DNA of 64,000 bases from contig OZ024755.1 of the NCBI GenBank assembly GCA_964016885.1, positions 25,544,001 through 25,608,000 on the forward strand, given 5' to 3'. The stretch is from Eledone cirrhosa (taxonomy: Eukaryota). The stretch's first letter is position 1; each line of letters starts with the position of its first letter. The notes beneath the pieces were generated by a model. The model had not been told where the DNA came from, ran no database searches, and saw only the letters and a program-made list of their open reading frames with translations. Below, in pieces: positions 1,240-60,712 of this stretch. The position numbers and the translations under genes are program-made.

Positions 1240-1325
1240 CTTCTATAAAATAAAAAATTATTACTCTGCCATGTATTGAGTACCTTACTTACTGTGGTTA
1301 TCCCCGACTCAACCCGGGACCTACG
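1187..1325 (+). mobile_element. Short non-autonomous PLE-like element, family A (HHR plus about 85-nt tail), in (TA)n
   Basis: Homologous to 18685-18810, 18897-19031, 26672-26866 and 30147-30330; TA repeats on both sides. Confidence 0.65.
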
Positions 1326-3512
1326 TATATATATATATATATATATATATATATGTCAGTGTATGTATGTACGTATGTATGTACGTATTATGTAGGTATG
1401 TATGTACGTTTGTACGTATTATGTATGTGTATGTATGTATGTATCTATCTATCTATGTATGTACGCATGTATGTATGTATGTATGTATGTATGTATGTAT
1501 GTATGTATGTATGTATGTATGTATCTATGTATGTATCTATGTATGTATGTATGTGTGTATGTATGTACCTATACACATTAACGGTGCACCGTACACAGGT
1601 ATGTAATGAAGTTATGTTGTTTGTGCAATTACGTGTAATGCGTTTGGAAGGCGGCCCATTATTTCTCGGTCACTTTCTTCCCATTCACCGCCTTGTCTTC
1701 TACCTTTTTTACTATTTATATTTACAAATGTTATTGTTAAAGTTTGTTTTGTTTTTTTTCGTTCTTATTTAATTTTTGGTTTGTTTTTGTTTTCATTTTT
1801 TTGTATTTCTTCATCTCGACTTCTTTTTCTAAGTTATTTGTTTCTTTTCACCAGTGAAAACAATGCTAAATTCCACATTTCACAACCAATGATTAGATTA
1901 TAATAATTCTTTGATCTTTTAGTCTTTTACTACTTTCAGTCATTCGACTGCGGCCATGCAGCAGCACTTTTTTGTTTTTTTTTTGTTTTTTGTTTGTTTA
2001 CAGCTTTCAATCATTAGACTGTGGCCATGTTTCAGCACTTGTTTTACTTGTTTCAGTCATTTGACTGTAGCCACAAACACGTGTATCCTTAAGGATACAT
2101 AGATATATAAATAGATACATACACATAAATACATACATACGTACATACGTACAATCATAGATAGATAAATACATACACACACATACATAAATTACCAGCA
2201 TACGTACATACGTACATACGTACATACATACATAAATACATACATCCTTCAGGATACACGTGTTTGTGGAATACTCAGCCACTTGCATGTAAATTCACGA
2301 GCAGGACATTCAGTTAACAAAACAACTGAATGGTCATCATCGAAACCGACGGAGGACCGTTCGTATATGGATGTGGGTAGGAGTAGGGGAAGAAGACTAT
2401 AGATTGTGAGTCTACGGAGGAACTTCTAACCTAATTAAGTTGTAAATTATAAAACAATAAGAATTGTGAGGTATTAGAATGTCCCGTAATTCTGTGTGTT
2501 CTCTGTTATTGAATCACATAACAAAAGACCAGAGTTATTTCACAGAGTCTCCATTGTAAAGCAGACTGAAGAAGAATGATTTTAATCTCTCGGAATAAGT
2601 TTCACACGAAATGTCAACGATGTCTTTTTTCGACGTTGATTTATTATTGCCAAATTAGGTTTGATGTTGTCATTGTATTAGGAAGGAGTAGAGAGGGACG
2701 ATGGGTGATGGTGGAGGAAGAGGGGAGGAGGAGGAGGGGAGGAGGTGGGGGGGAGGAGAGGGGGGGGTGATGTTAAATGAGAATGGGGGGAGACGGGGGG
2801 GTGAGAGAGGAGGAGGTAAAGGGCGAATGAGGTGGTGAGCGGAAGAGAAGTAGAACAAGAAGGAGGGGAGGGTGGAAGGGGAGGGGAGGATGAGGAGAAG
2901 GTGGAGGAGGGGGGAGGTGATAAAGGAGAATGTGGTGGTGGGGGAGAGGAAGAGGAGGTGAAGGTGGAGAAGGTGGAGAAGGAGGAAGAGGAAATATATA
3001 GTCAGTACTACGTAACACTTGTGTGTTCTCTTCAGCAGACAAACCGTGTGTTACAAATAGCATGTTGTTATAGGCACCCTCCTATTTAAACCAAACTTCT
3101 TGTTCATTTGCAAGCCGACTTTTTCTCTTCCTCACATTTACTTGTCAAGTCACGTAAAACTCTATCTATGTATGTATTTATATATATATATGTGTGTGTG
3201 TATGTATTTAATATGTATGTATGTACGTATGTCTGCATGTATGTATGTTTGTATGTATGTATGTTTGTGTGTATGCATCTATGTATGTAAGTATGTATGT
3301 ATGTATGCATGTATGTATGTATGCATGTATGTATGTATATATGCACGTATGTATGTATGTACGTATGTATGTATTTATGTATATATATATGTGTGTGTAT
3401 GTATTTAATATGTATGTATGTACGTATGTCTGCATATATGTATGTTTGTATGTATGCATCTATGTATGTAAGTATGTATGTATGTATTTATGTATGTTTG
3501 TACGTATGTATG

Positions 3513-3687
3513 TTATCTCTTTCTCTTAATTTCGAGTATATTTCTTTGACCGGCCACCTTCCTGGTGGCAAGGTTGTAAAAGAAAAGAAATTGTCATCCC
3601 TTGAATCGAAAGAATGTTTTGCAAATTTTGAAGGTGCCAGCTATCGCAGCCATTTGTAGACTATGAATTAGGGAGCTGCGTTCTTTG
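3513..3687 (-). mobile_element. R4/Dong-like LINE 3' end, 5'-truncated, inside (TATG)n
   Basis: Near-identical reverse complement of 55560-55735 (SSLIHSLQMAAIAGTFKICKTF plus 3' UTR hairpin GCCACC-aggaa-GGTGGC). Confidence 0.8.
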
Positions 3688-4074
3688 TATGTATGTATGT
3701 ATGTATGTATGTATGTATGTATGTATGTATGTATGTATGTATGTATGTATGTATGTATGTGTGAGTGTATGAATGCATATATGTATGTTCTTCTGGTTTT
3801 ATTATTTTATAAATTTACACCTATAGAGAGAGAGTCGGTTTCTAACATAGACACAAGACTTTCATTAGAATTTCGACATCAACTAGGTAAATACGTATGT
3901 ATGTCTATATGAGTTTGCGTGTGTATGTGTGTTTGTGTTTGTGTATGTGTGCGTGTATGTCTGAGTCTGTGTATGTAGGAATGTATGTTATTGTATGTGT
4001 GGATCTTCATGTTGTGAGTTATACGTGCACATGCACATATGTTTCTCTGTGTATACATGTCTATGCATGTGTAT

Positions 4075-57352: not shown

Positions 57353-58494
57353 AAACAACACCAACAACAGCTGCAACATTTCTGCAAGTTTTCTAATATT
57401 GTCTGCAAATTGCAGTTCATCATGTATTGCCATTAACAACGAAAAACAGCAGCAAAAAGTAGAAAATAAGAACAAAAAAAGGAACAAAATGGCAGCCATG
57501 ACATCAAAATTCGTGTTACTTGTCAGACGATTTGTCAGGAACACAGGCGGGGGAAGGAAGGGAAGAAGACGATCCACACACCAAACAAAAATGAAGAAAA
57601 AAAACATCTAAAAGGCAACAAAGCAAGAGAGAGACCTTGTCTTTCTCAAACCGTCTTTAAAAAGTCATTAAATTTGTGAGAAGTACAAGGGAGTGAAATG
57701 GAGAAAATATAAAAAGATATATAACGACAGTAAAAGGTTATATTCAAAATGTTAAAGCAGACGATCATTCAAAGCAACAGTAAAAAATAGAGAGAAAGAA
57801 AAATGGGTGATGTTTAGATAAGAATGGATGATTAACTCATTATTTTATTCCCTTATTTTCCTTTTTTCACTTTGTTTTTTTTTGTTGTTTTGTTGTTTCT
57901 TTTTGGTTAATTTTATTATTTCTTTATTTACTAAGTAATTTCTTTTTTTTTTTTCTCTAGAATTTATTTAATATTCTAACCGTCATATAGTATATATTAT
58001 ATTTTACATTCATTCACGTATGCGTGATATGTATATATATGTATATGTATATATATATATAAATATATATATATGTATATGTGTATATATATATATATAT
58101 ATATATATATATATATATATATATATATATATATATATATATATATATACACACACACACACACACATATATATATATATATATACATATATATGCATAT
58201 ATATATATGTGTATGTATATATATATGCATGCATATACACATACTACATACAACAACCATACATACACATATACATGTACATATATTGTTTCATTTCTCA
58301 CCACCAATAAAGATTCGGTTTTTAACGCCGAACCAAGACTCTTTGGAATCTAGACATCAACAATATGCATGTATGATTACATGCGTTTGTGTATGAGGGT
58401 GGGGGCAGGTGTACAGGTAAGGTTGTTATTGAATATGTGGATCTGTATGTTTTAAATTATATATGTACATATATTTTTTGGTCTATATATGTGT

Positions 58495-58704
58495 ATATGC
58501 AGTTATTACATTCTAAATTTCTGAAATGTTTTACATATTTTTACAGTTCCATTAATGGACTGTACTTGCAACTGTGGTCTTTCTCGTTCTGTGAAGCCCA
58601 GTTTCTAAGGATTTGTACTGAGGCAGTTACCAACATATCCCAGAGCCCCAATGATTGCAGGTACAAATCTAAAGGTATAAGTCAGTGTGGAATATCTGCA
58701 AATG
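58495..58704 (-). mobile_element. R4/Dong-like LINE 3' end, second subfamily
   Basis: Homologous to about 4075-4285. Confidence 0.7.
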
Positions 58705-60712
58705 TATGTATTTAAGAGCAAAGGAACTCAGAAGAGACAACGCCCATCCAATAAAGAATTGGCGGGGGGGGGGGCAGTCGAGTGAGAGATCCCGAGTCTT
58801 CATTAAGATATCTCTCTAGGAGAAGGTCACTCATATAAAACCTCCGACTTTGTTTGCATTCAATGGCGTAGGCCAGTTATTCTTTTTGGGTAAATGCATT
58901 TATGCTGCACGTTCCACTGAGCTATTTTCTTCGGCCATATTGTTAGTATCCCATAATCGAACGTCTCTACATTTACTCCATATCTATATATATACTCTTC
59001 GTTTCTTATTCATGCAGTGGATTGCAATATATTTTATTTCTAAGATCTAATAATACCGAAATGTAACCATTGTATTTATTAGTTGTCTTTCAACGATTTC
59101 GTGACTCTATTTCAATTAATTAATTGTGAACTTTTTTGCTAAAATCACTAATTATTTCTGTACTAAGATTTAAATTTAAGAAACCAATTAAAATTGTTGT
59201 TGTTTACAACCAGAGCCATATAATCAGAGCCATAGAACCAGAACCGGTTTTGGCAGGCTTGGTATTAAATGCGTTAAGATAAGAACTCTCATTTCTATCA
59301 TCATCATTTTCAAAAAGTATTTCAATTAACCGCTTTTATCACAGTTATCTCCCTTGATTATTGATTTAAAAATTTTAAACACCCTTAGAGGGTTGTCAAC
59401 TAATTGCATGTATAATCTTAGTTAATGGAAGTTTTTTTCTACAGCTCTTTATATTATGTACGTGTAACTCTGCTGTATTCGTATTTACTGTACAGAAAGT
59501 TCCCTTGAGTCACTTTCCCACCGCCATATTGTTGATGTTTCTTCAATAATTACCTCCCCTTTCACGCTTACTTCGCCTTTAGTTATCCTTTCTATCTTAC
59601 ATTCATTTTTCCCTCTTTTTTCAGCTCTTTTTTTTACAATTTTGCATTCTTTCTCTTTTTTCTGCAATCACCAAGATATGTTAACAGTCATGGTGTTTTT
59701 TTTTTCTTATTTTTATTTTGTTTGTTTTTCTTTCTTCTTGTCTTTTTCTTTTATTACTTTTTCTTTTATAATTCTTTACTTTTTCCTGTCCTTTTCCTCG
59801 TCTCATTCTGTTTTTTCATTTTCCATTGGGGGTTCTTTTTTTTCTTTTGTTTTTGTAATAGTTAAAAAGCAGTAGAGAAAGTATTGGCAGAAATTCTAGT
59901 ATGGAATTGGGGCGGAAATTGTGAGGAGTGTAAGATCATCTAAAAGTCTGTATAATATGATCAAATTAGTCATAGTAACAATAACAATATCGAAAATTAG
60001 AAAATTGATGTCAAAACCTGAAAACTACCAATAATTGTTTCTACTTTTGGCACAAGGGCAGCAAACCGTTATCATCATCCCAAAACGGGTGGAGGTCGTT
60101 TGTATCTTGCTAGAAAAAAAACGGGTTTATGGGTTAAAGCAATTTCGATTGTCAATTAAGACAAACACCATACGTACTTAGAACAGACAATCGTATTAAG
60201 ATATGAAGGAGCCAAAAAGTTACACTCTATAACAAAGGGTGCAAAAAAGCCAGAATCTAATGAAGAAAATAAGGAACAAAACAAAACAAAGCAGTCAGAT
60301 ATATATATATATATATATATATATATATATATATATATATATATATATATATATATATATAGTAATAATAATAAATTTGAAGACTAAAATCCAAAGACGG
60401 CTCGATAAGGATAAATATATATCAAATATATAAATATATAAATATATGTGTGTGTGTGTGTGTGTGTGTGTGTGTGTGTGTGTGTGTGTGTGTGTGTGCG
60501 TGTGTGTGTGTGTGTGTGTGTGTGTGTGTGTGTGTGTGTGTGTGTGTGTGCGTGTGTGTGTGTGTGTGTGTGTGTGTGTGTGTGTGTGTGTGTGTGTGTG
60601 TGTGTGTGTGTGTGTGTGTGTGTGTGTGTGCGTGTGTATAATGGTAGCTATGGTGCTTCCATAGGCGGTATGCCAAAATTAGCACTCAATATTCATACAG
60701 AGCAGAGTGTGA

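Follow-up and report, generated by a model that had tools for sequence, protein, structure and literature searches.

In a 64,000-nt stretch of the Eledone cirrhosa genome (GCA_964016885.1, contig OZ024755.1, positions 25,544,001 to 25,608,000 of the forward strand; hereafter the window, meaning this whole stretch, with positions counted from its first letter), an initial annotation had noticed the 11-mer RYATYGAGYAC shortly before the 3' ends of several families of microsatellite-bound repeats. We find that this 11-mer makes up the 3' arm of a small bulged hairpin that is predicted in the tails of Hydra-type Penelope-like elements (PLEs), and that the hairpin is a real and new cis-element of a known retroelement clade whose elements and tails had themselves already been described. 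As modelled from sequence, the hairpin is likely an RNA docking site for the element's reverse transcriptase (RT), which would then start about 6-9 nt upstream of it, a mechanism that we hold to be true with a probability of roughly two in three.

The window is dense in microsatellites, has 35% GC and belongs to a genome of 3.0 Gb. It contains ten exact matches to RYATYGAGYAC versus 0.58 ± 0.71 in shuffled sequence (none of 100 shuffles reaches ten), and each of the ten lies 39-51 nt upstream of a TA or CA run. All sites listed by the initial annotation are present, and its junction distances are borne out within 1-3 nt: from the 11-mer to the microsatellite we count 42, 41, 41 and 39 nt in family A, 46 nt in family B, 47 nt in family C, 51 nt in an orphan tail and 36 nt in family D. 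Across 864 kb comprising the window and other regions picked regardless of the motif, 1,182 junctions have 39 exact sense matches upstream of them, of which 35 sit 30-59 nt before the junction. The positional enrichment that the initial annotation expected also appears genome-wide, where RYATYGAGYAC followed by N35-60 and (TA)6 has 40,763 matches versus 3,032 for the reversed control, a ca. 13-fold excess that refers to the forward strand only since overlapping matches inflate the reverse-strand count. As a consensus, RYATYGAGYAC describes a real motif but is too narrow, because variants with a TA bulge (CATHGARYAC; 6,327 matches versus 235 in the control, 27-fold) or a GAGTGC end (GAGTGCT; 19,740 versus 245, 80-fold) are abundant as well; all these totals are dominated by few large families, and that of the 11-mer by families A and B. 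A coding remnant, a splice donor and a promoter word were ruled out by eye as explanations of the motif, given that its variants break the reading frame or the GY dinucleotide.

The 11-mer had been described without its complementary 5' half. Every match is preceded by the sequence R(C/T)TC, which is the complement of GA(G/A)Y and forms with it a predicted lower stem, above which follow a 2-nt bulge on the 3' side, with U first, and then a second stem of 2-6 bp. The sequences of this second stem change with compensation (TAC/GTA, TGT/ACA, CAG/CTG, AGA/TCT, TAAGG/CCTTA), and the loop ranges from 3 to about 60 nt. Across 23 families, no variation is seen in the columns T, C, bulge T, G and A, and 55 double-sided changes compare with 18.7 after shuffling, with six of eight pairs covarying, though these families had been hand-picked for pairing and the comparison is to that extent circular. 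A less circular test used loci selected on the 3' half only, of which 11 of 30 families fold versus 3.2 expected (at most 8 in 300 shuffles), or 5 versus 0.7 under a strict criterion. When a covariance model was run on 380 kb of held-out DNA, 42 of its 45 matches with E<1 lay 20-95 nt before a TA or CA run, versus 13.6% of random positions, as did 8 of the 11 held-out matches unlike the training tails; the model also recovered long-loop families absent from its training set.

What holds a constant distance to the hairpin is not the 3' junction, which the initial annotation had taken as the anchor of the motif, but a second, upstream junction. We mapped 556 microsatellite-bound ends on 22 references: 208 lie ahead of the hairpin (162 of them at -12 to -4), 6 within it and 342 beyond it. 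For this short end, the most frequent position is 6-9 nt ahead of the hairpin in 15 of the 16 families with data (several families have only 1-4 ends, and family D is over-sampled), while the long end ranges from +38 to +88 depending on the family. With a short end before and a long end after the hairpin, the motif therefore lies within the PLE tail, and its fixed spacing is that to the short end. Tail length runs from about 68 nt in family A to 142 nt in family F23, compared with the 30-40 bp of the PLE tail definition, and both junctions are mostly followed by TA, like the target. We further note that in families A, B and D the 5' breakpoints concentrate between about -55 and -72 relative to the hairpin. 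In A and B they lie 5' of the site at which the hammerhead is predicted to cleave, a position that points to uncleaved RNA as the template for A and B insertions.

Where a pseudo-long terminal repeat (pLTR) runs on into an open reading frame (ORF), a second hairpin appears beyond the long junction, starting 6 nt past the long end in family D and 6 nt past one of the two long ends in family F5. It was then predicted for five more families, using search patterns that left its spacing (2 or 3 to 14 nt) and its upper stem free. In family B, 93 of the 100 listed out of 383 matches have one common continuation with 6-nt spacing and a 4-bp upper stem, and the same coherence is seen in F10 (56 of 62 matches, 6 nt) and F3w (13 of 14, 8 nt); it is this coherence that constitutes the evidence, the zero controls of these searches being trivial. 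The covariance model weakly detects hairpin 2 at the ORF-bearing loci L309 and L223, and a further likely copy was seen by eye at L110. In families B, D, F5 and F10, hairpin 2 stands just before the ATG at a distance of roughly 20-75 nt. Insertions that end at the long site do not include it, and hairpin 2 therefore cannot act on the product. A 3.4-kb spacing of two family A ends proved coincidental.

The two junctions also organize the head-to-head insertions that these repeats often form. Among 104 pairs with both arms classified, 99 combine a long-ended with a short-ended arm and 5 are made of two long arms, with no case of two short ones (108 further head-to-head pairs had an unclassified arm); this agrees with the definition of the PLE tail as an optional extension present on one of two inverted ends. 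For 96 long and 35 short arms no partner was found. Tightly joined pairs number 61, comprising 37 equal palindromes, 18 pairs in which the short arm reaches further 5' and 6 in which the long arm does, and in 13 of the 18 the arms do not overlap at all, as at window positions 7221-7353. Because the short arm in these 18 of 61 pairs holds sequence missing from the long arm, it was not copied from the long arm, barring later deletions. At one locus (L339; G000:C2:7215301-7216300), three head-to-tail, tail-only copies of family F10, each 104 bp long and stretching from close to the short site as far as the long site, lie behind an inverted arm, an array that may record the RT jumping back repeatedly between its two sites.

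The motif-bearing repeats are short insertions that are truncated at the 5' end, contain type I hammerhead cores and are often arranged head to head; hammerhead-bearing short and inverted copies of this kind belong to the known anatomy of PLEs (Craig 2021, PMC8557442; Cervera and de la Pena 2014, PMC4209133; cited papers are represented here and below by parts of their text). Five hairpin families are tied to Hydra-type ORFs, namely D (L159), B (L013, L309 and L340), F5 (L223), F10 (L227 and L329) and a fifth family at L102/L110. In family B, ORFs of 719 and 717 aa with RT and endonuclease motifs lie in tandem, with an intact 719-aa ORF at L340 and a period of ca. 3.54 kb that exceeds the "generally under 3 kb" tendency of the Hydra clade; here an RT with a C-terminal GIY-YIG-type endonuclease in a single ORF is recognizable by motif. 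The family D ORF at L159 is split by a frameshift, and Pfam matched no RT or GIY-YIG family on its pieces. The RWK motif reads RWK in F10 and RWR in B and D, DKT replaces DKG in B, D and F10, and a CxCX5C linker is present in B and D, with CxxC and CxH near the conserved E and N found by eye in D. Predicted hammerhead cores of canonical form occur in families A, C, F3, F5 and F10; by eye, the family B hammerhead resembles the U3-A8 variant and family D lacks a canonical core. The hairpin families insert into (TA)n. For families A and C no ORF-linked copy was found, and their putative clade membership is suggested by common anatomy, as is that of the orphan tail, which was compared with the analysed set of loci. 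A search for divergent Hydra elements with the family D endonuclease returned family D only.

The families had been called otherwise unrelated, which is true of their flanks, whose pairwise identity of 31-37% is near background compared with 79% for the lower stem, but not of those that carry ORFs, whose N-terminal proteins are 33-51% identical. Judged by their sequences, the motif families are probably old members of one clade and not unrelated, and within them the motif is far better conserved than its neighbors. The hairpin extends beyond this genome: among six Hydra consensi of Craig 2021 (PMC8557442) read by eye, it is clear in Hydra-2_Amil of a coral, which matches the RYATYGAGYAC 11-mer too, and in Hydra-2_Ajap and Hydra-1_Ajap of a sea cucumber, the latter with two copies before the ATG.

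Hallmarks of the Neptune clade (a CX2-5CxxC linker and DKG) are not seen in the hairpin families with ORFs, which carry Hydra motifs. Our GIY-YIG search returned mostly Neptune-type elements, and their 3' ends differ from those of the hairpin families. The hairpin at L146 was considered as the end of a Neptune-type element and rejected, as it belongs to a separate neighboring insertion. By eye, the Neptune-type 3' ends at L142 and L146 seem to have a hammerhead of the U3-A8 type and, immediately after the short end, a small hairpin of another kind, and weak hairpin matches in Neptune-type 3' untranslated regions at L037:2129-2184 and L147, before an internal CA run, are probably due to chance.

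In the mechanism that we favor, a read-through transcript would present, in this order, the hammerhead, the short site, hairpin 1, the long site, hairpin 2 and the ATG. The RT-endonuclease would bind both hairpins, possibly as a dimer, and cut both strands of the (TA)n target; one 3' end would use the long site for priming and its counterpart the short site, in most cases at a UA able to pair with the primer, and the two complementary DNAs (cDNAs) would then be joined head to head. The optional tail and the inverted pLTR would both result from this one step. The conserved cis-signal for the element's enzyme that the initial annotation had suggested is hence still the best reading, except that the signal would be one arm of a structure instead of a linear motif. 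A wider proposal, for which we see the odds as even, is that a single bulged RNA hairpin of ancient origin is present twice in Hydra-clade PLEs of cnidarians, echinoderms and cephalopods, that each copy is a ruler setting one subunit of a dimeric, telomerase-related RT about 7 bases upstream, that this programmed twin priming creates the tail and the inverted pLTR, and that the two-hairpin cassette alone would be enough to insert any RNA at TA microsatellites.

Several results weigh against the docking mechanism. In the folding test on 3'-half-selected loci, 19 of the 30 families failed, and when 5' halves were swapped between families 30% still passed versus 37% observed, a high rate that is due to the lower stem being common to the families. 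A loose descriptor applied to all 726 junction clusters yields 15 hits versus 9 ± 3 in shuffles, no clear excess, and its bulge length performs not clearly better than other bulge lengths. Single hairpins are of ordinary stability (z of +0.7 to -1.8, not significant), antisense strands fold equally well, a strand test comparing G-U with A-C gives 6 versus 4 at the consensus level, and when a long stretch of family B is folded, the two hairpins pair with each other instead. The upper stem of hairpin 2 measures only 1-2 bp in D, F5, F10 and F3w, and read-through with hairpin 2 was not found in family A (11 incoherent matches; none common in 100 listed of 1,732) or family C (1 incoherent match). 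Neptune-type elements of this genome, which also target TA, show no such hairpin at their ends, and among the Hydra consensi of other animals the hairpin is a variant in Hydra-1_Crog, weak in Hydra-1_Amil and unclear in Hydra-1_Obim.

Another point of this kind is that fold-back copying explains the 37 equal palindromes equally well. Under such a scheme, only the long site would be primed, and the cDNA would fold back, copy itself and halt at hairpin 1 or a protein bound to it, or, in a variant, an antisense template would be used. The near-even strand test is compatible with this idea, and Arkhipova 2013 interprets palindromes in head-to-head orientation as products of self-priming, for which the template may be antisense. 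However, the short arms of the 18 pairs described above hold sequence absent from the long arm while only 6 pairs show the predicted longer long arm, 35 short-ended arms have no partner found, and a stop at hairpin 1 leaves unexplained why hairpin 2 is equally spaced from the long site, all of which makes us doubt this scenario strongly. Somewhat less doubtful, if still unlikely, is that the GIY-YIG endonuclease reads the motif on DNA and cuts a donor or intermediate at a TA fixed 6-9 nt away, so that the ends would be cut sites and not cDNA starts. The TA that mostly follows both junctions suits this reading, as does the lower stem, which amounts to an inverted half-site pair; moreover, Craig 2021 (PMC8557442) attributes the tail to endonuclease-mediated resolution, and according to Frangieh 2024 (PMC11167929) the D. 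virilis tail is needed for endonuclease recognition. Yet the covarying upper stem, the one-sided bulge and a loop of highly variable length fit a folded single strand better than duplex DNA, and for PAc, a PLE of Anolis, tail ends coincide with RT starts in vitro (Frangieh 2024, PMC11167929).

That the hairpins act in expression, be it in translation start, RNA stability after hammerhead cleavage or as a promoter element of the upstream pLTR, with junction spacing a secondary matter, would agree with hairpin 2 standing close upstream of the ATG in families B, D, F5 and F10 and with the view of pLTRs as promoters (Frangieh 2024, PMC11167929; Arkhipova 2013). We nevertheless judge it improbable, as the distances to the ATG and to the hammerhead vary whereas that to the junction is fixed. 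Least probable of all is common ancestry without function, in which the motif would be a word left over as copies of a single element diverged. The ORF-bearing families do belong to one clade, but with proteins only 33-51% identical and flanks near background both stems are kept by compensatory changes, and the hairpin recurs in coral and sea cucumber; on the sequence comparisons, covariation and spacing largely refute this explanation.

Within the window, hairpin 1 of family A is found at 1263..1281 (+), where the previously noted 11-mer at 1273-1283 corresponds to its 3' arm plus 2 nt and the long junction is at 1325, at 18753..18771 (+), at 18940..18958 (-) in a copy with one substitution that was absent from the earlier list, at 26715..26733 (-) with a perfect palindrome at 26740-26865 upstream, and at 30189..30207 (-). 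The type I hammerhead motif upstream of the first copy (1189..1237, +; core 1194-1216, limits approximate and set by eye) is not among the 150 Rfam matches listed for the window, which are only microsatellite artefacts. Family B has hairpin 1 at 5924..5947 (-; long junction 5876), 7282..7305 (+; direct arm 7270-7353), 41034..41057 (-) and 52656..52679 (-). The first of these insertions has palindromic head-to-head arms at 5952..6054, the inverted arm ending at the short junction before the hairpin, and the second has an inverted short-junction arm at 7221..7272 (-) that contains sequence missing from the direct arm. The family C hairpin at 12188..12209 (+; long junction 12258), whose lower stem is weakened here (GCTC in relatives), adjoins palindromic arms at 11974..12189 with hammerhead cores on both strands. 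Family D, the TTATCGAGCC repeat, is the pLTR of a Hydra-type element present in full length at L159 and has hairpin 1 at 53012..53056 (-), while its copy at 60400..60435 (-) is truncated within the hairpin and lacks the 5' arm.

Further copies of hairpin 1 belong to family F5, tied to its Hydra-type ORF at L223 (41637..41661, -; palindrome 41669-41992), family F3w (44544..44564, -; inverted arms 44573-44899), family G (60684..60708, -; palindrome 60716-60996) and, with a long loop, family H (36104..36176, +; long junction 36264). A variant in family F48 (20764..20785, -) has a TA bulge and an A-U first pair above it, and a hairpin-like variant at 29788..29812 (-) is related to family F7. The orphan tail carries an imperfect hairpin at 35563..35582 (+) that the covariance model missed, and it has distant relatives at L204 and L074 (72-75%). 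A strong covariance-model match at 36961..36982 (-) has no microsatellite junction within 600 nt.

Other features of the window and the analysed loci concern different repeats. Family E (window 21061-21255 and 26119-26381; L057 and L053) is hammerhead-bearing and TA-bound, with a one-mismatch motif at L057 whose lower stem has only 2 bp and a GTGAGT donor-like word near the end. At L070 (minus strand), a 150-bp unit is repeated in an array of 11; every unit has the 11-mer together with an imperfect hairpin, and the unit examined lacks a canonical hammerhead core. At L062, 15 hammerhead copies lie at a constant 174 nt from the next microsatellite in a retrozyme-like manner, with no hairpin noticed. 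A 24-bp minisatellite of 34 copies occupies window 7726-8545, and the segments at 55142-55642 (+), 23036-23651 (-), 15754-16192 (-) and 13784-14347 (+) resemble what we take to be ORF fragments of other elements without long terminal repeats (non-LTR elements; restriction-like endonuclease, RTE-like).

We found no description of the hairpin or of its duplication in the literature outside Repbase, subscription journals, the figures of Frangieh 2024 (of which S1B and S2C show RNA folds) and bioRxiv supplements. The origin of the PLE tail and of the inverted pLTRs is named as an open question in Craig 2021 (PMC8557442). Given a 20-nt motif whose invariant bases are known and which keeps a constant distance to either end, and given that the genome encodes an intact 719-aa protein, this question becomes directly testable. 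If true, the docking mechanism would mean that a structure defines the position of the template in retroelements closely related to telomerase, and it would explain the defined ends of tens of thousands of ORF-less stubs in this genome.

In the twin priming of L1 elements, the second target strand primes internally, which joins an inverted upstream segment to the direct segment, and the second site is set by chance complementarity. By contrast, the second site in our proposal would be dictated by a structure, and the majority of arms overlap. For telomerase RNA and hepadnaviral epsilon, the template register is set by an RNA structure to which the RT binds; the likeness to the hairpin described here is one of analogy. 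PLE RTs are relatives of telomerase (Craig 2021, PMC8557442). The Hydra clade as characterized in that paper shares with our families RWK/RWR, DKT, CxCX5C, a C-terminal GIY-YIG-type domain, in part of the families a predicted hammerhead near the 3' end, (TA)n targets and tandem as well as inverted pLTRs; it differs in that the portions considered mention no tail hairpin and give tails of 30-40 nt compared with ca. 68-142 nt here, and the 3.54-kb unit of family B and its by-eye U3-A8-like hammerhead depart from it as well. Non-LTR retrozymes likewise have type I hammerheads of PLE origin and short ORF-less copies (Li et al. 2026, 10.64898/2026.07.22.740005; Cervera and de la Pena 2014, PMC4209133), but those of Li et al. 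2026 form tandem hammerhead arrays, whereas such tandem units do not occur in the window, where copies are single stubs or inverted head to head. A close parallel in mechanism is PAc, a Poseidon element, whose RT starts at two internal sites flanking the tail and extends both target strands, and whose protein needs RNA 3' of the start sites and is predicted to form a dimer (Frangieh 2024, PMC11167929). Two internal RT starts that bound the tail, extension of both target strands and the requirement for 3' RNA are thus common to PAc and our proposal, though PAc belongs to another clade, its start sites fall within the ORF, where they are part of an AC-rich stem loop, and the parts of Frangieh 2024 considered here define no conserved binding motif. 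That work placed the two start sites and not the RNA signal, for which the hairpin of the Hydra-type tails is a candidate.

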